Source of the DNA: Veleropilina oligotropha
Lineage: Eukaryota
Assembly (NCBI GenBank): GCA_048128005.1
Contig: JBEUKZ010000006.1
Coordinates: forward strand, 186,001-250,000
DNA: 64,000 nt
Direction of reading: 5' to 3'
Within the stretch, counting starts at the first letter, position 1. Every line of letters begins with the position of its first letter. Below, piece after piece: positions 27,310 to 42,928 of this stretch. Position numbers and translations under genes: made by a program. The notes under the pieces were generated by a model that saw nothing but the letters and a program-made list of their open reading frames with translations, was not told where the DNA came from and did no database searches.

Positions 27310-27374
27310 GGGGGGGACTAGGGCATTTTATCCTAGGGCCAGGGCGGCCGGGGAGGCTCCCAGCACCGTCCGAA
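27310..27374. repeat. Left terminal inverted repeat
   Basis: gggggggactagggcattttatcctagggccagggcggccggggaggctcccagcaccgtccgaa matches the reverse complement of 42864-42928 with one mismatch. Confidence 0.95.
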
Positions 27375-28728
27375 ACTGGAGTTGACAATAACTGTTATCT
27401 CCCGTCGATGACTAAGCTGACCTAATTTCTATTAGATAACGACTGGTGTAGAATCTCTTATCATTCTAGAATCTTCATTGCCGACTCATCATGACATATA
27501 CAATGAGTCGACAAGATTTCGGTCCCTATGTTTACGTCGAAGCTTTTGGTGACCCAGTGAAAAATGTTTCTGGACCGAAATCTTTTTTTTACTGGGTCAC
27601 CAAAAGCTAAATACGTATCCGACAGCTTGCAACTTCTGTGCCACCAGAAATGCGTTCGACAAAATCTATTTTTAACTGGGTCAGCCAATCAGATACGCTG
27701 CTTGTGATAGCTGCTTGTGATAGCAGCGAGGGAAACAATAGACGCAGCGCCGTCCGAAACTGGAGTTGACAATAACTGTTATCTCCCGTCGATGACTAAG
27801 CTGACCTAGTTTTCTACCTGTCGTTATCTAATATAAATTGATAACGACAGGGTTAGGAATTTTCATCTCTCAACTTTTGACAGTAATTTACCACCGGCGT
27901 ATATTTGTATCATAATCTATGTTAGAGACTGGCATAGTAATGTCATGTCGCAATACAAAGCATTGCGCGACAATTTCCATTTAGAGACTGATATATTAGT
28001 GTCATAATCTATATTTGACTAAGCTGACCTAGTTTTCTACCTGTCGTTATCTAATAGAAATTGATAACGACAGGCGTATATTTGTATGATAATCTATGTT
28101 AGAGACTGGCATAGTAGTGTCATGTCGCAATACAAAGCATTGCGCGCCTTAAACAATTTCCATTTAGAGACTGATATATTAGTGTCATAATCTATATTTA
28201 GAGACTTGTATATACATGCTATACGCTATAACTATGCGGGGAACGAATATATGCCCTTGGTTGAAAGTTAATACCATTCGGGTTTGTGGTCTTAGCTGCG
28301 TCCACAAATTTTGCAAGACACATAGACAGCAAATTCGGATGGGTAGAACATCACCCCTGCCATGTAGGGTATGTGGTGTCGGCACGAAATCGGCCGTTCT
28401 GTTGTGTAGACCATGTGGAGGTCATCGTGGCGCACAGACACTCATAAACACTGAAAAAAGAGCTCGCCGTCTCTACGGCAAAGTATTGTGCGAGTTGCAG
28501 TCGCGCGACTGCAACAATTTCATTTAGAGACTGGCATATTAGTGTCATCTCGCAATACTTTGTATTGTCCGATTCCATTTAGAGACTGGCATATTAGTGT
28601 CATCTCGCAATACTTTGTATTGTCCGATTCCATTTAGAGACTGGCATATTAGTGTCATCTCGCAATACTTTGTATTGTCCGATTCCATTTAGAGACTGGC
28701 ATATTAGTGTCATCTCGCAATACTTTGT
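27365..28728. repeat. Subterminal direct-repeat region, including four 55-bp tandem copies at 28521-28728
   Basis: 27365-27424 recurs at about 27750-27808, 27895-28015 recurs at 28073-28198, and the ttagagactg motif recurs about eight times. Confidence 0.85.
28216..28527 (+). CDS. Small putative zinc-finger protein
   Basis: 103-aa ORF with C..C..C..CKTH and CRVC...CRPC clusters, in otherwise repetitive non-coding DNA. Confidence 0.55.
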   Translation: MLYAITMRGTNICPWLKVNTIRVCGLSCVHKFCKTHRQQIRMGRTSPLPCRVCGVGTKSAVLLCRPCGGHRGAQTLINTEKRARRLYGKVLCELQSRDCNNFI

Positions 28729-28729
28729 G

Positions 28730-31700
28730 ATGCCTCTCCTCAGAGAACTACGTAATTTAGCGAAGGATTATGGGCTTCCCGGTAGGTCGAAGCTCAACAA
28801 AAACGACCTCATCACGGCAATAGCCGGGGTCCGTGCTGCCGAGTTCCAGAGGAGACTCGAGCGGGCGATGAAAACGGGAAGATTCCCCTCCATTCGTGGA
28901 GATGTAGAGAATCCCCACAAAAGAGGCCGTCGTGCTCGTGAATTGCGACAGTTCCAGGACGAGGTCGATGTGGCCCTAAGGGTCAGTAAATACACAACCC
29001 AAGCTGAGAAAAAGCCTGGGCTACGACAGAAGCCACTTCGTAACATCACGGATCGAAACGTCAAGCCACACCTGCACGGTCTGGTTAGGTCTCGGAAAGA
29101 GACCCTTGCCCAGGCAATTGCTCGGGAGGGGTCCGATATTCTGAGCGACCACTTAATCCCGGATGAATATTATTCACTTCTCGTTGGCGGTGTCGCAGTC
29201 CTGTTCCCCGATGGAGCTTATATTAAAAAGGGCGCCGACGTCATTCGTAAAGAAATTACCGAGGCTATTGGTGGTCGTAGATTCGACTTCCAGGCTGTTG
29301 TAAGGGGGCCTGACATAACAGACGAAGGCGCAGTGTATTGGGTATCGTGCGAAAAGAGGGATCTTCGGGTGACGCTGGGCATGGCCTCGGAGGTGTTGGA
29401 ACTTCTAGACCCCGACACACAATACAAGTTGTTCACGGTAGTGGGGAAATCGGCCAAGGAGCCTCTTGCCCAAGTGACAGAGGAAGTGGGTGTCTCTGAG
29501 CAGCACATTAAGGGGAAGGGGGTGGTTCGTGGAGACCAGGTCAGCGCCGGGGCTCTTCAAGGCATCGACCAGCATACGTGGGAGAAGGGGCGAGAATATC
29601 TCGTCTATGTTAGGTATGAGCTGCGTCCGCTTCCGGAGCAGCAAGGAGAACCGGGGCCAATGCTAGCCCCTCAAGAAGACGGCGAGTTTGTAAACTGCTT
29701 CGTTCGCTGTGTGGTGGACCACTTCCAGAACAAAATGACGAAAGCCGGAGATGGGTTAACAAGGAGCCGCAGACAAATTCTTCAGCAGTTCGACCGAAAG
29801 CTTGCAGAAACGGGCTGCACACACGAGGATATGTTCTCCATTGAAGCGGCTCTCAAAGTCAAGCTTGTTGCCATCGACGCGTTAGGCAACACTCTATGGG
29901 ACAGCGGTAAATACAAGAGCCATCCCAAGATTCTGGTGCCGTGCCATAACAACCACGCATGGGAAAGCATCCCGATTGATCCACCCAAGATCTTACAGGT
30001 TTGCAGTCTCGACGACATCGCAGAACAGGCCCTTAAGCCTGTGGTTCTGGGAAAGACGGGACGAAAAACCACTGCGGCCCAGAAGACCATGGACCAAAAT
30101 ACAAGAGAGGTTCTGATCTCATTTGCCGCCAGGGCCATCCCATCGACGGTCCGGGTCTGGGTATGTGGACAGGCTCTCGTGGGTAGCGATGGTTCCCTGT
30201 GGAGGTCGAGGGCCGAGGATATGGCTATTGACCGCGCTTTCGAGGACGAGACGCATTGGCATCCTTCCGAGATTCCCGAAGAACTTAAGAAGCTTGAAGA
30301 GGAATACCACAGAGCGACCCACTCCATGGGTGGCGCCATGTCTTACCGGTTCCAAAAGTGGTTGGCCCGCGAGGAGATCAAGCCAACGCCCGAAAAACAC
30401 CGGGACACCTGGAGAGCGGCTCAGGTTGAGGCCAAGGTTTGGAATTCTAATGACTCAGCCGCAGGCACAAGTGTTCATTATCATATCGACATGCGCGCAG
30501 CATACCTTGGCTGTGAAGACTCCCTTTCTGGGGGGGTTGGAGATGCCATAGATCTAGTGCGCCAGTATGGGTTCCCGACGAGTATGATGCGTCGAGCGAA
30601 CGTCGAGGGCGTGCCCATAAGAGATGTCCTCACCTTGACAGGAGCGGTGCAGCTCACTGCGTGGCAATTCAGCCCAGAGACACACCCCTATACCGTAGGT
30701 CACGTAGGCGAGCACCTACAGGAGAAGCAGGGCTGGATCACTACCCCCGAGCTTGCAGACTTAATTGGCTCTGGTGATCTGGTGGAGGTCACAGTGCGCG
30801 AGGTGGTATACAGCATAGGCATAAAGGCCTCTATCAAGTTCCCATTAAGAGACCTGGCCGTGCGCTTCGTTGGCAAATGTGCTCGCCATGGTGATGAGTC
30901 GAGCATCCTAGTCCGTGATCCAAACGAGGCCGCCTACTTGGCCAATGTTCTCGGCGGCACTGACCGTCTCGTGAACTTCGAGAAGGCTGACAATGTCCAC
31001 CTCATTCAGTACAAGGACGGCAAGATCAGGACGCAGTGGTTTCATATACGAGCCTTCGTACTCGCATATACGAACATTGCCCTCCGCCGCATGCTACGAA
31101 GATTCCCACGAGAGGATGTCCTTCGTGTCTGCACCGATGCCATATACGTCAAGAGCCTGCCCGAATCGGTCGAACATATGCTGGTCCCAGACCAGCCTAG
31201 GTATGGGCAATGGCGACATAAATCCCAGGGTTACGAGTGGCGCCCAGAGGCTGCTGCTTGGACGATAGAGCATGCTGGTCGTCTCGACTTGCCCCCCCAT
31301 GGGGTGAATGCCCCTCCGTTCCCTTCCGATATCAGCGCGGCCACCTCGCGACGTTTATACCTCGCAGGTCAGGGCGGGAGTGGAAAAACCGAGTGGGCTG
31401 TTCAGACATTTCGTGGTCGGAAGCTGGTCGTGCTCACCCCCGAGAACGACCTCGCCCAAGAACACCGCAACAACCCGAGACTTGGTCTAGAGAATGCACA
31501 AGTCCAGACGATCCACCACTACTTATGTCTACCCGTCGGCAAGCCGATCGATGATTGGGACCCGGCTGCCCTGGGACACCGACTCGATAACCTAGCCGAG
31601 GTTATCATCATCGACGAGTGTTGCAAGGTCCCCACGAAGATCCTGATGACCGTCCTTGATTATCTCGCCCGCTGGATGTGTCAAATCATATGCGTCGGGG

Positions 31701-42150: not shown

Positions 42151-42233
42151 CCATCCAGGTTGAGCGTGGGGTGGGGGACTTCCCCCCTCCCCCGTATTAA
42201 AGCTCGAACACGACAGTGATATCTGGACAAACC

Positions 42234-42650
42234 ATGAACTCCATGCTAATTCTGTGCATTGCCGCGGTGTCCTGTCTAGCGGGTGTCTCCCAGGCGTCGT
42301 CACATGACACTGCATTAATTCTCGAACATACGTGGGCTAGGTATCGAAATCACCCCATGTACAACATACGACTCGACCCCTTGCGGAGAAACTTGCTACG
42401 AGACCCCACCCCTGAGGTATCCCCACCCTCGTGCCACTACTTTATTATCGGAGAGAATGAGTGTGGGGGGGCTCCTCCTGACCCAAATACTGTGGTCTGC
42501 ATTGAATGCGCTGAGCCGTCATTATGTCGTGGTAAACATGGGCATTATTTCTCAATGTTGTCTACCGACTGCTTTGGTACGTGGAGTCAAATAGGACACC
42601 AGTCGTCATGCAACTGTACTTTAGCCAGTGGGAATTACATATTTATTTAA
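42234..42650 (+). CDS. Putative secreted cysteine-rich protein (138 aa)
   Basis: Signal-peptide-like MNSMLILCIAAVSCLAGVSQA, eight Cys in the mature region and an NCT sequon; ACCATG start context. Confidence 0.6.
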   Translation: MNSMLILCIAAVSCLAGVSQASSHDTALILEHTWARYRNHPMYNIRLDPLRRNLLRDPTPEVSPPSCHYFIIGENECGGAPPDPNTVVCIECAEPSLCRGKHGHYFSMLSTDCFGTWSQIGHQSSCNCTLASGNYIFI

Positions 42651-42863
42651 CTAATGTAATTCTACACCCTCTCTCGGGTAGTCAACTAGGGGGCAGATCT
42701 CCGACTATACCCCACCCCCGCATCTTTGCGATGGACCGCCCCGCCCCGCGGTGGCCTCGTCACGTCGCATCGGCAAAGCACCGCGCGCACGTCGAGTAGG
42801 TCGCGCCGTCAGACGGTGGTGGGAGCATCCGCGCCCAAATAGAATATTCTAAGCTAGCCTTGA

Positions 42864-42928
42864 TTCGGACGGTGCTGGGAGCCTCCCCGGCCACCCTGGC
42901 CCTAGGATAAAATGCCCTAGTCCCCCCC
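42864..42928. repeat. Right terminal inverted repeat
   Basis: Reverse complement of 27310-27374 with one mismatch; followed by TTTTG. Confidence 0.95.

Follow-up and report, generated by a model that had tools for sequence, protein, structure and literature searches.

A probable Polinton/Polinton-like-virus element with a predicted polymerase-helicase-nuclease replicase in the genome of Veleropilina oligotropha

Organization and boundaries of the insert

The window analysed is a 64,000-nucleotide stretch of the V. oligotropha assembly GCA_048128005.1 (contig JBEUKZ010000006.1, positions 186,001 to 250,000). Positions 27310-42928 of this window form an insert of 15,619 bp that is GC-rich compared with its surroundings (0.524 versus 0.398 and 0.370 in the two flanks), both of which consist of ordinary host-type retroelement sequence. 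It comprises the following features.

27306..27309, TTTT, left copy of a putative target-site duplication (direct reading; equals 42929-42932)
27310..27374, + strand, left terminal inverted repeat (TIR), 65 nt, 98% complementary to 42864-42928, opening with seven G
27375..28215, non-coding left end with subterminal repeats (sequence self-comparison)
28216..28527, + strand, 103-aa Cys-rich zinc-finger-like protein (tblastn, 38-44% identity in L003, L006, L007, L008 and L024)
28517..28728, 55-bp tandem repeat, 3.9 copies (TRF, 99% matches), directly upstream of the replicase start codon
28730..32752, + strand, replicase, 1,340 aa, pPolB-S1H fusion or 'Tlr1-like helicase' (Pfam, PHROG, alignment, AF2 model)
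29666..29968, + strand, OTU-like cysteine protease domain of the replicase, aa 313-413 (VIA-align and invariant residues)
29984..31258, + strand, protein-primed family B polymerase (pPolB)-like domain, aa 419-843 (predicted structure)
31337..32419, + strand, superfamily 1 (SF1) helicase domain, about aa 870-1230 (Pfam AAA_19/AAA_30)
32495..32752, + strand, C-terminal HNH/endonuclease VII-like nuclease, aa 1256-1340 (PHROG endonuclease VII, E 2.4e-7)
32749..33723, - strand, rve (DDE) integrase, 324 aa (Pfam rve, E 2.4e-8)
33689..34000, - strand, 103-aa conserved ORF that overlaps the integrase start from upstream
34050..34478, - strand, 142-aa protein with hydrophobic N- and C-terminus (49-75% identity, 13 loci with a match)
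34511..34750, - strand, 79-aa conserved small protein (46-77% identity, 13 loci with a match)
34758..35276, - strand, 172-aa basic/low-complexity protein with a hydrophobic segment (31-48% identity to ORFs of L003, L006 and L007)
35170..35922, - strand, 250-aa conserved protein adjoining the ATPase (homology across loci)
35921..36025, 11-bp tandem repeat, 9.6 copies (TRF), spacer between the ATPase and 250-aa genes
36027..36659, - strand, A32/FtsK-type genome-packaging ATPase, 210 aa (Pfam Pox_A32, E 5.6e-11)
36631..37935, - strand, major capsid protein (MCP), 434 aa (Capsid_N, E 6e-4, under the Pfam cut-off)
37966..39180, + strand, 404-aa protein with acidic N-terminus, coiled coil and hydrophobic C-terminus (34-66% identity in relatives)
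39161..40438, - strand, 425-aa conserved protein with C-terminal membrane anchor (alignment of relatives)
40443..41183, + strand, putative penton (minor capsid) protein, 246 aa (position and conservation)
41180..41530, + strand, short fibre/spike-like protein, 116 aa (comparison with relatives)
41389..42150, + strand, 253-aa ORF, conserved from Met48
42234..42650, + strand, 138-aa Cys-rich protein with signal-peptide-like N-terminus (ORF reading)
42864..42928, - strand, right TIR, 65 nt, closing with seven C
42929..42932, TTTT, right copy of the putative target-site duplication (direct reading)

The TIR arms match at 64 of 65 positions, in keeping with the single mismatch reported in a first-pass annotation, and direct reading confirmed the G-run ends that it reported. 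That annotation had also described a flanking TTTT(G) repeat. TTTT is indeed present on both sides, but the G belongs to it only if a terminal base of the element is counted: because the base to the right of 42929-42932 is G, the putative duplication is strictly 4 bp, and reaches 5 bp only when one terminal G is included. A chance 4-bp match in such an AT-rich flank has a probability of about 0.5% by a composition estimate; the repeat, just 4 bp of T, is suggestive of a target-site duplication. Both the near-identity of the TIRs and the foreign GC content are consistent with recent insertion.

The left end is repetitive. Sequence 27361-27428 recurs at 27745-27812 (97%), and two repeats of about 180-220 bp each occupy 27793-28199. 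One copy of a 35-bp word, CCTGTCGTTATC...GATAACGACAGG, spans 27817-27851; a second, differing by one change, spans 28040-28074, and either copy is a palindrome in itself. Words related to the 55-bp repeat are found at 27922-28005 and 28099-28188. These left-end repeats may act as an origin or a promoter.

We counted 17 genes in the standard code, none of them interrupted. All of the roughly 15 tightly packed ORFs first listed are present and open, and the conserved ORF at 33689-34000 is additional; its product is 58-61% identical to L003 8755-9138 and L006 8978-9307. Relatives were found in other loci for 16 of the 17 genes (31 loci compared), the exception being 42234-42650, which appears to be an accessory gene. 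Synteny over 11-13 genes links the element to L003, L004, L006, L007, L008, L018, L019 and L020. The protein encoded at 28216..28527, which matched no Pfam family, is kept at the same end of relatives irrespective of their replicase type. The integrase and packaging ATPase had been recognized at first pass and are borne out by their Pfam matches. Asp85, Asp150 and Glu185 of the integrase are conserved in 9 sequences, with a D-to-E spacing of 35 residues, as are the Walker A motif (Gly25-Thr32) and Asp105-Asp106 of the ATPase in 20 sequences.

Domain architecture of the replicase

The replicase starts with a SAP/Rho_N-like motif (aa 4-31). Its residues 290-875 were modelled with AF2 from a 25-sequence alignment (pLDDT 85.5, pTM 0.81). 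Comparison of this model with phi29 DNA polymerase by VIA-align gave a Z of 15.4 and an rmsd of 4.0 over 324 aligned residues (model 130-554, phi29 52-499), and 9 of 9 Foldseek matches in the PDB at E≤0.001 were phi29 DNA polymerase chains (E 7.5e-8). In BFVD, 34 matches were obtained at E≤0.001; the named ones were mostly protein-primed family B polymerases, with three poxvirus proteins, and the best was the mavirus pPolB (TP-vOTU-palm; E 9.4e-9 over 607 columns of a 617-aa protein). Invariant residues of the domain are Asp587 (motif A-like), Thr802-Asp803, where motif C is without its first Asp, and Lys831/Tyr835. In the model, Asp587 ends strand 295-298 and Asp803 lies in the hairpin between strands 508-511 and 515-518. 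By themselves, sequence profiles fail to connect the replicase with pPolB (hhalign probability 0.2; no Pfam PolB match in 13 replicase homologues), and the basis of the polymerase assignment is a single predicted structure.

OTU/DUB proteases account for 30 of 50 VIA-align rows, covering model positions 10-126 (mainly 24-124) with 74-102 residues aligned at Z 4.5-5.8, a range that the tool terms common. The OTU-like domain was accepted because Cys323, at the start of model helix 34-44, and His409 are invariant across 13 homologues and because of the literature, not from Z alone. The helicase domain shows a Walker A motif (880-887) and Asp962-Glu963, matches the PHROG Dda-like helicase (E 2.4e-9) and has PDB profile matches to Dda, Pif1 and RecD. 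The nuclease domain matches the PacI HNH (E 0.02) and keeps the invariant pattern CxxC...H...D...H...N...CxxC...H. With the polymerase fold and the OTU domain of the model, the protein thus reads as OTU-pPolB-SF1 helicase-HNH. The PolB-helicase-HNH fusion initially proposed is upheld, mainly by structure, its helicase and HNH parts also by sequence.

This architecture is that of the 'Tlr1-like helicase' or pPolB-S1H of Polinton-like viruses (PLVs), Tlr1 and transpovirons (PMC5499653; PMC11161782). As these reports describe them, such replicases share the order of a variable N-terminus, a vOTU with conserved Cys and His, a pPolB-type palm whose motif C also lacks its first Asp, then SF1 helicase and C-terminal HNH domains, and are of comparable size (1,000-1,400 aa); the likeness is drawn from these descriptions. 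Residues 32-289 lie where the same sources put the terminal-protein domain. A mavirus-like pPolB has been proposed as the ancestor of pPolB-S1H (PMC11161782). Mavirus differs from the element in having no fused helicase or HNH and in depending on a giant virus, a dependence of which the element bears no sign.

Capsid module, protease and relatives

The MCP would adopt a double jelly-roll fold. Pfam Capsid_N was found at E≤0.01 in 18 of 55 family members, DJR-like_dom, Capsid_N or Capsid_NCLDV are carried by 10-24% of the members of Atlas neighbours at 0.98, and a UniRef relative 72% identical to the protein is named 'Major capsid protein'. In one search the family gave 2,675 matches; clustered at 50% identity it comprises 2,699 clusters. 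PDB profile searches with the MCP returned nothing relevant, its single structure model reached a pLDDT of 28.3, and 10 remote MCP clusters had no informative names. Purifying selection on the MCP is strong, as judged against L003 (dN 0.156, dS saturated).

The penton-like protein, which carries an insert of about 18 residues absent in 10 relatives, is predicted to assemble head to tail into a homo-oligomer (score 0.48 versus 0.00 for the best control; runs agreeing in at least 75% of contacts, partner pLDDT at least 71); in the calibration of the tool, the mark was reached by 21 of 30 homomers and by none of 23 monomers of solved structure, and a pass may reflect memory. The fibre-like protein retains the N-terminal MS(S)IYG word and the C-terminal head, while the shaft repeats of its relatives are missing (116 aa versus 252-425 aa); the relative at L007 941-2218 matches Phage_T7_tail (E 1e-11). 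In the 253-aa ORF, relatives align from residue 47-56 on, and the Met48 ATG at 41530 shares one base with the preceding stop, yielding a 206-aa coiled-coil/membrane protein. The 404-aa protein has a weak PHROG tape-measure match (E 1.9e-4). The 142-aa protein, with no credible Pfam family, is a putative virion membrane protein, and the 172-aa gene overlaps the 3' end of its neighbour (35170..35922), as in relatives. The 425-aa protein is the sole one of the morphogenesis block with invariant Cys and His (Gln78, Cys87, His99, His114, Asp133, Cys152); it had no Pfam or PDB sequence match, and a role as an enzyme or zinc site is speculative.

A Pfam scan of 15 window ORFs at E≤0.01, with 33689-34000 left out, gave no match to a stand-alone adenain/Ulp1-type protease, nor was such a gene seen in 9 scanned non-replicase ORFs of L003, L006 and L007. 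The earlier statement that no protease ORF is recognizable therefore holds for this type of enzyme, but not for the OTU-like cysteine protease domain inside the replicase. The 250-aa protein, which matched no Pfam family, was ruled out as a Cys-His protease: it has no conserved His and one conserved Cys (C180). No phospholipase domain was detected in the element.

Within one capsid group, pPolB occurs in five loci (L006, L007, L008, L024 and L014; PF03175, E 7e-14 to 6e-19) versus the helicase-polymerase fusion in two, with remnants in a third (L029). L003 has the helicase-type replicase. The pPolB-bearing relatives that share the capsid module have MCPs 64-73% identical to that of the element. 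The same morphogenetic module is thus found with either the fusion or canonical pPolB, so an exchange of replication modules has taken place. A preprint presents such switches from pPolB to polB-SF1 or back inside one capsid group as common, with 'Mavpol2' as an example (bioRxiv 10.64898/2026.06.19.733378). The L006 and L007 contigs run from TIR to TIR without host flanks and start with similar terminal words; relatives are also found on contigs of 100 kb to several Mb. No relatives were found in IMG/VR, and literature searches turned up no paper dedicated to this family.

Affinities and status of the element

Canonical Polintons have 5'-AG termini and 6-bp target-site duplications, and pPolB with rve is their defining pair. 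The element has G-run termini and a 4-5-bp duplication, and no adenain/Ulp1-like protease or phospholipase domain was detected in it. It shares with Polintons/Mavericks (Polintoviricetes), especially 'group 2 / Mavpol2', an animal genome, TIRs, rve integrase, MCP, penton-like gene and A32 ATPase; like its relatives, group 2 is described as having pPolB or a helicase-polymerase fusion within one capsid group. Adintoviruses (10.1101/697771; PMC11071296), as described there, have in common with it the animal association, an OTU N-terminal to a PolB-type polymerase, and rve integrase, capsid, penton and packaging genes. Unlike them, the element is without adenain, its polymerase is fused to an SF1 helicase, and its integrase matched only rve and rve_3 in Pfam, with no chromodomain detected. 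Tlr1 likewise couples pPolB-S1H with an rve integrase and has the same set of integrase, capsid and A32 ATPase genes (PMC5499653; PMC11161782). In contrast to PLVs, Tlr1 and transpovirons, which are ciliate, alga or giant-virus systems, the element lies in an animal and has a capsid module common to pPolB-bearing animal or metagenome elements.

We conclude, with a probability of roughly 0.85, that this is a linear dsDNA virus-like element from the supergroup of Polintons/Mavericks and Polinton-like viruses (Preplasmiviricota), one that integrated recently and whose genes are intact. Its nearest named relatives point to an animal host, probably a mollusc. The TIRs, open ORFs, rve and Pox_A32 bear out the integrated, TIR-bounded element recognized at first pass. 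In such an element, the integrase would insert the linear genome with a short (4-5 bp) duplication. The replicase would copy it through protein priming, with the homopolymeric G/C termini as starting points at which sliding-back would be possible; the replicase's N-terminal part may be the terminal protein, cleaved off by the OTU domain, and the fused helicase would take over strand displacement, a scheme proposed for pPolB-S1H (PMC11161782). Packaging by the ATPase would then fill an icosahedral capsid, probably with a membrane, whose components would be the MCP, the penton-like protein and the short fibre.

A misjoin of a free viral or contaminant genome to host sequence could explain the sharp GC contrast at the flanks, but is very improbable: the insert ends exactly at complete TIRs with the same tetranucleotide on both sides, host-type retroelements lie in both flanks, and relatives sit on long contigs. 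A possible, though less likely, alternative is a transposon-like or fossil copy that no longer makes virions and spreads, if at all, by integrase-mediated transposition or vertically. The missing adenain/Ulp1-like protease or the shortened fibre gene could leave this copy unable to make normal virions; the penton insert points the same way, and several MCP and replicase clusters with tens to hundreds of near-identical members (for example 679, 113 and 75) on long contigs fit intragenomic amplification. Against it stand the 17 open ORFs with conserved catalytic residues, the near-identical TIRs, the unameliorated GC content, the purifying selection on the MCP and the TIR-to-TIR metagenome contigs of relatives.

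The first-pass annotation had taken the non-canonical replicase, the G-run termini and the lack of a protease as marks of a distinct, poorly described animal dsDNA virus lineage. The termini and duplication, the lack of adenain/Ulp1-like genes in the scanned ORFs, of IMG/VR relatives and of a dedicated paper, and the uninformative names of the remote MCP clusters favour this reading. According to Starrett et al., full-length S1H replicases in animal WGS are only degraded coral/jellyfish contigs and one lancelet element, in a survey that would miss a family without adenain because adenain was the bait (10.1101/697771). An essentially undescribed lineage is nevertheless unlikely. The replication module does not mark one, pPolB-S1H being already described (PMC5499653; PMC11161782), and close relatives have canonical pPolB plus rve. 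In bivalve genomes, a survey preprint tallied 107,631 viral regions and assigned 40.8% of them to PLVs (10.1101/2025.04.19.649669). Animal Maverick-Polintons of 'group 2' are described by Bellas and Sommaruga as carrying SF1-helicase-polymerase fusions, and their preprint also places some elements from bivalves with Aquintoviruses (10.64898/2026.06.19.733378). By its replicase, the element would thus largely group with a family for which this fusion is already on record. As both the replicase type and the swapping of modules are already described for this group, the V. oligotropha element is a good new example rather than a new kind.

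Boundaries and gene content of the element

The element spans window positions 27310-42928 (15,619 bp). The terminal inverted repeats reported in the first-pass annotation were confirmed: the two arms, at 27310-27374 and 42864-42928, are 65 nt long and 98% complementary, and they form the sole long inverted repeat within 26500-43800. Direct reading of the termini shows that seven G open the left arm and seven C close the right arm. The flanking repeat noted previously is also present, TTTT abutting both arms at 27306-27309 and 42929-42932. This duplication measures 4 bp, or 5 bp when one terminal G is counted, in the single copy examined; a duplication of 6 bp was rejected, as the flanks do not match past TTTT. 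Polintons end in 5'-AG and are flanked by target-site duplications of 6 bp. The element thus shares the presence of terminal inverted repeats with the Polinton/Maverick pattern but differs from it by its G7/C7 ends and by its 4-5 bp TTTT repeat, seen in this single copy.

The GC content is 0.524 in the element and 0.398 and 0.370 in its flanks, while the CpG observed/expected ratio (0.91, vs 0.94 and 0.78) does not discriminate its age. No other stretch of the window matches the element. The flanks contain ordinary eukaryotic retroelement ORFs, namely reverse transcriptases, a tyrosine recombinase beside a reverse transcriptase and a DUF3504 protein. A GC-rich (0.558) retroelement with a DIRS-like arrangement lies at 6754-11960 (-), its ORFs encoding a 290-aa protein with a weak phage-integrase/tyrosine recombinase match, a 620-aa reverse transcriptase and a 739-aa protein without family. 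Three more reverse-transcriptase ORFs and a DUF3504 ORF were found (45152-47031 (-), 49061-49516 (+), 4141-4596 (-)), and a 26-bp minisatellite occupies 24113-24980 (33.4 copies, 96% matches), where the GC skew reaches 0.605 (24001-25000, strong G-over-C). The surroundings are repeat-rich, without an evident host gene. The element is genuine, and it appears both intact and young.

As claimed earlier, the ORFs are uninterrupted, being open under the standard code and closely packed or overlapping. Comparison with 31 related loci showed that 16 of the 17 genes are conserved. The features discussed here are the following:

28216-28527 (+), Cys-rich protein beside the replicase, 103 aa
In front of the replicase gene, 55-bp array, 3.9 copies, candidate regulatory or origin element
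28730-32752 (+), replicase, 1,340 aa
33689-34000 (-), conserved 103-aa ORF, missing from the first-pass list
35170-35922 (-), 250-aa protein
In front of the 250-aa gene, 11-bp array, 9.6 copies, candidate regulatory or origin element
36631-37935 (-), putative major capsid protein (MCP), 434 aa
37966-39180 (+), 404-aa protein
39161-40438 (-), 425-aa protein
40443-41183 (+), penton-like protein, 246 aa
41180-41530 (+), fibre protein, 116 aa
From ATG 41530, most likely start (Met48) of the 253-aa ORF, overlapping the preceding stop codon by one base
42234-42650 (+), accessory gene at the right end, Cys-rich, secreted-looking protein of 138 aa with a signal peptide
Subterminal, palindromes, candidate regulatory or origin elements

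The 138-aa ORF has no relative among the 31 loci. Ten of the 15 ORFs scanned gave no Pfam match. The proposed integrase, a 324-aa protein, matches Pfam rve (E 2.4e-8), and its Asp85, Asp150 and Glu185 are kept in an alignment of 9 sequences with a D-to-E spacing of 35 residues. The proposed packaging ATPase (210 aa) matches Pox_A32 (E 5.6e-11), its Walker A and Asp-Asp motifs being kept in the alignment with relatives. A retrovirus-like (rve) DDE integrase and an A32/FtsK-type packaging ATPase are both common to the element and to Polintons/Mavericks. In contrast, adintoviruses are defined by Starrett and Buck by an adenain and an integrase C-terminal chromodomain, neither of which was matched in the element with Pfam at E<=0.01.

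The replicase and the protease question

In the replicase, the SF1 helicase and the HNH domain are all that sequence methods reveal. Pfam detects Rho_N and AAA_19/AAA_30, the helicase region matches Dda, Pif1 and RecD profiles, and PHROGs yields a Dda-like helicase match together with an endonuclease VII match (E 2.4e-7) at the C-terminus. PF03175 has no match in the replicase or in 12 homologues, and hhalign of the replicase family against four sibling protein-primed family B polymerases (pPolBs) gave a probability of 0.2, both profiles being shallow. The AF2 model of residues 290-875, built from a 25-sequence alignment, has a pLDDT of 85.5 and a pTM of 0.81. Searched against the PDB with Foldseek, it matched at E<=0.001 only phi29 DNA polymerase chains (9/9, best 7.5e-8). 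VIA-align superimposed model residues 130-554 on phi29 52-499 (Z 15.4, rmsd 4.0, 324 residues aligned), and 30 of the 50 matches listed were OTU-family proteases, aligned within model residues 10 to 126, mostly 24-124, with Z of 4.5-5.8. In BFVD, 34 matches were obtained at E<=0.001; the named ones are mostly protein-primed PolBs, three are poxvirus proteins, and the mavirus pPolB is aligned over almost its full length (9.4e-9). The fold search thus points to a pPolB, and the candidates PrimPol and family A polymerase were rejected for the N-terminal half. Together, the predicted phi29-like fold, the AAA_19/AAA_30 matches and the endonuclease VII match bear out the PolB-helicase-HNH fusion proposed in the first-pass annotation.

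The residues invariant in a 13-sequence replicase alignment include Cys323 and His409 (OTU), Asp587, Thr802-Asp803-Ala804, Lys831 and Tyr835, as well as the Walker motifs of the helicase and, in the HNH domain, its Cys, His and Asn residues. In the model, Cys323 starts a helix, Asp587 lies at a strand end and Asp803 within a beta-hairpin. Thr802-Asp803 corresponds to motif C without its first Asp, and motif B would correspond to the invariant F713/G715 region.

This domain layout is the already published pPolB-S1H architecture, a fusion of pPolB with an SF1 helicase. Krupovic, Yutin and Koonin describe the 'Tlr1-like helicases' of PLVs, Tlr1 and transpovirons as proteins of 1,000-1,400 aa that combine a pPolB-derived domain with an SF1 helicase, plus a C-terminal HNH in PLVs (PMC5499653). 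In the account of Krupovic et al. 2024, this was refined to TP-vOTU-palm-S1H, where vOTU is an OTU-type protease domain, with conserved Cys and His and a DTD motif without its first Asp, and the polymerase is predicted to be active (PMC11161782). The Tlr1 element is described as pairing its 'Tlr1-like helicase' with an rve integrase. Like the PLV/Tlr1-type proteins, the replicase of the element has a vOTU with conserved Cys and His beside the palm, a palm with motif A kept, motif B inferred and the first Asp of DTD missing, and an SF1 helicase followed by a C-terminal nuclease, which is HNH or GIY-YIG in those proteins and HNH here.

Homologues of the replicase (21 sequences) include proteins of glomeromycete fungi and, among animals, of a sea anemone and of relatives of two sea slugs; a further search with the replicase alignment recovered no new sequences. 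The homologues P0131 and P0139, annotated in glomeromycete fungi, are full-length pPolB-S1H relatives with 36-38% identity. The replicase lineage is therefore common to animal and fungal genomes.

The earlier statement that the element has no recognisable protease holds for a capsid-maturation gene, as no adenain/Ulp1-like match was found, but not for the replicase, which is predicted to hold an OTU-like protease domain. Pfam scans at E<=0.01 covered 15 ORFs of the window and 9 non-replicase ORFs of the related loci L003, L006 and L007, and gave no peptidase family. Unlike Polintons/Mavericks, the element thus shows no match to an adenain/Ulp1-like maturation protease in its scanned ORFs, where a very divergent one is possible. 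The combination of invariant Cys and invariant His occurs in just one of the 7 morphogenesis-block families that were aligned, that of the 425-aa protein. Neither a PDB profile search nor Pfam detected relatives of known function for this protein, Pfam giving only scattered single matches on 11 members of its family. The 250-aa gene beside the ATPase was rejected as a protease candidate, having no conserved His.

The proposed mechanism is as follows. The integrase would insert a linear genome, and the pPolB-S1H protein would prime at its homopolymeric ends. PRD1 has G-run ends and replicates by sliding-back. After priming, the OTU domain may cut off the priming part, and the helicase could stand in for strand displacement. 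The ATPase would then package the DNA into a putatively icosahedral, membrane-containing capsid.

The capsid module

The MCP has a sub-threshold Pfam match to Capsid_N (E 6e-4). Among 8,000 candidates scored, 2,675 matched it at E<=0.001; the best 120 matches are 68-80% identical and include a sea-slug protein named 'Major capsid protein' in UniRef and contigs binned into symbiont MAGs. An exhaustive profile search retrieved 2,699 clusters (50% identity) at E<=1e-3, 377 of them at E<=1e-30. Judging from these matches, the capsid module is part of a very large family. Capsid_N was detected (Pfam, E<=0.01) in 18 of 55 MCP family members, with a best E of 1.7e-5, in an alignment reaching 26% identity. 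In the clusters of the feature-space neighbours (0.98) of a 75%-identical MCP relative, 10-24% of members have DJR-like_dom, Capsid_N or Capsid_NCLDV, which is a lead to capsid identity and not a proof. PDB profile searches returned nothing relevant for the MCP, ten remote cluster representatives bore no informative names, and the AF2 model built from the single sequence was unusable (pLDDT 28.3). On sequence evidence, the double jelly-roll fold is a very likely but putative assignment for the MCP. Compared with the MCP of L003, dN is 0.156 and dS is saturated, a sign of strong purifying selection.

For the 246-aa protein, a head-to-tail homo-oligomer is predicted with a score of 0.48 (runs 0.48, 0.48 and 0.63; best control 0.00). 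In the calibration of the tool, 21 of 30 solved homomers reach the pass mark but none of 23 solved monomers does, and a pass may reflect memorisation. At least 75% of contacts agreed between runs, with a partner pLDDT of at least 71. This prediction fits a penton identity; the PDB profile search with this protein returned nothing relevant.

The fibre proteins of relatives are 252-425 aa long, start with MSI(F/Y)G and have a shaft of repeated units, whereas the 116-aa fibre of the element keeps the start and the C-terminal head and is devoid of shaft repeats. Repeat units of about 45-90 residues occur in the fibre genes of L007 (941-2218 (-)), L006 (910-1788 (-)) and L003 (677-1435 (-)). The L007 gene has a match (E 1e-11) to the family of phage T7 tail-fibre N-termini. 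The variation in length across the family (116-425 aa) suggests that the fibre is a fast-evolving host-recognition protein.

Gene order is repeated in L003, L004, L006, L007, L008, L018, L019 and L020: coiled-coil protein, fibre, penton-like protein, 425-aa and 404-aa proteins, followed by MCP, ATPase, 250-aa, 79-aa and 142-aa proteins, then integrase, replicase and Cys-rich protein.

Exchange of replication modules and standing of the element

The same capsid module is found with a canonical pPolB in five related loci, L006, L007, L008, L024 and L014 (PF03175, E 7e-14 to 6e-19), four of which also have an endonuclease VII match. The MCP is 64-73% identical to that of the window in the four pPolB-bearing relatives with a complete MCP. 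L003 has a helicase-type replicase, 31% identical to the window's, and an MCP that is 80% identical. An MCP tree of 19 rows, from which L002 and L005 were excluded because of stops, is poorly resolved and unrooted; in it the window pairs weakly with L003 (81/77), and the pPolB carriers are split between two other groups. In L017, the protein at the replicase position (5034-7826 (-), 930 aa) has endonuclease VII as its sole match (E 8.3e-5) and may be a further replicase type, the third within this capsid family, that has gone unrecognised.

The L006 and L007 metagenome contigs extend from TIR to TIR without host flanks (L006 1-137 / 14377-14475, L007 1-432 / 13103-13235; the matched parts, 99 and 133 nt, are truncated by the contig end). 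Given this span and their similar starting words, each is probably a free linear genome of about 13-14.5 kb, complete or nearly so. Their terminal words are unlike the G-run ends of the window; the termini therefore seem to move together with the replicase type.

The view of the element as a distinct lineage is not supported, since both the replicase and the module-swapping pattern are already in print. Bellas and Sommaruga report that such replicase switching is common, including in animal 'group 2' Maverick-Polintons, and that a few bivalve elements group with Aquintoviruses (10.64898/2026.06.19.733378). According to a survey preprint, bivalve assemblies contain 107,631 viral regions, of which 40.8% are assigned to PLVs (10.1101/2025.04.19.649669). 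IMG/VR scans yielded no relatives of the element, and no paper dedicated to its family was found in the literature searched. Candidate placements at family level are Polintoviricetes group 2 or an Aquintoviricetes-like group. Starrett et al. baited their searches with adenain, and the full-length S1H replicases that they report from animal data are limited to degraded contigs of coral and jellyfish and to a single lancelet element (10.1101/697771). The adenain bait and the few S1H finds may explain the low profile of the family in that literature.

We give a probability of roughly one in four to the following reading. The adenain-less capsid module, with several small membrane proteins, a conserved 425-aa Cys/His protein and variable fibre, would define an unnamed, very abundant virus family circulating in molluscs and other marine invertebrates; pPolB and pPolB-S1H replicases would be exchanged freely in it, and any capsid maturation would fall to the replicase OTU domain or the 425-aa protein rather than to adenain.

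An intact, young, TIR-bounded pPolB-S1H copy in an animal genome constitutes a clean test object for the activity of the fused polymerase, predicted in 2024, and is likewise suited to testing the processing of the replicase by its OTU domain. Comparing it with pPolB-bearing relatives that share its capsid genes shows how replication modules and genome termini are swapped. This abundant family would escape searches that use adenain or a canonical PolB as bait.
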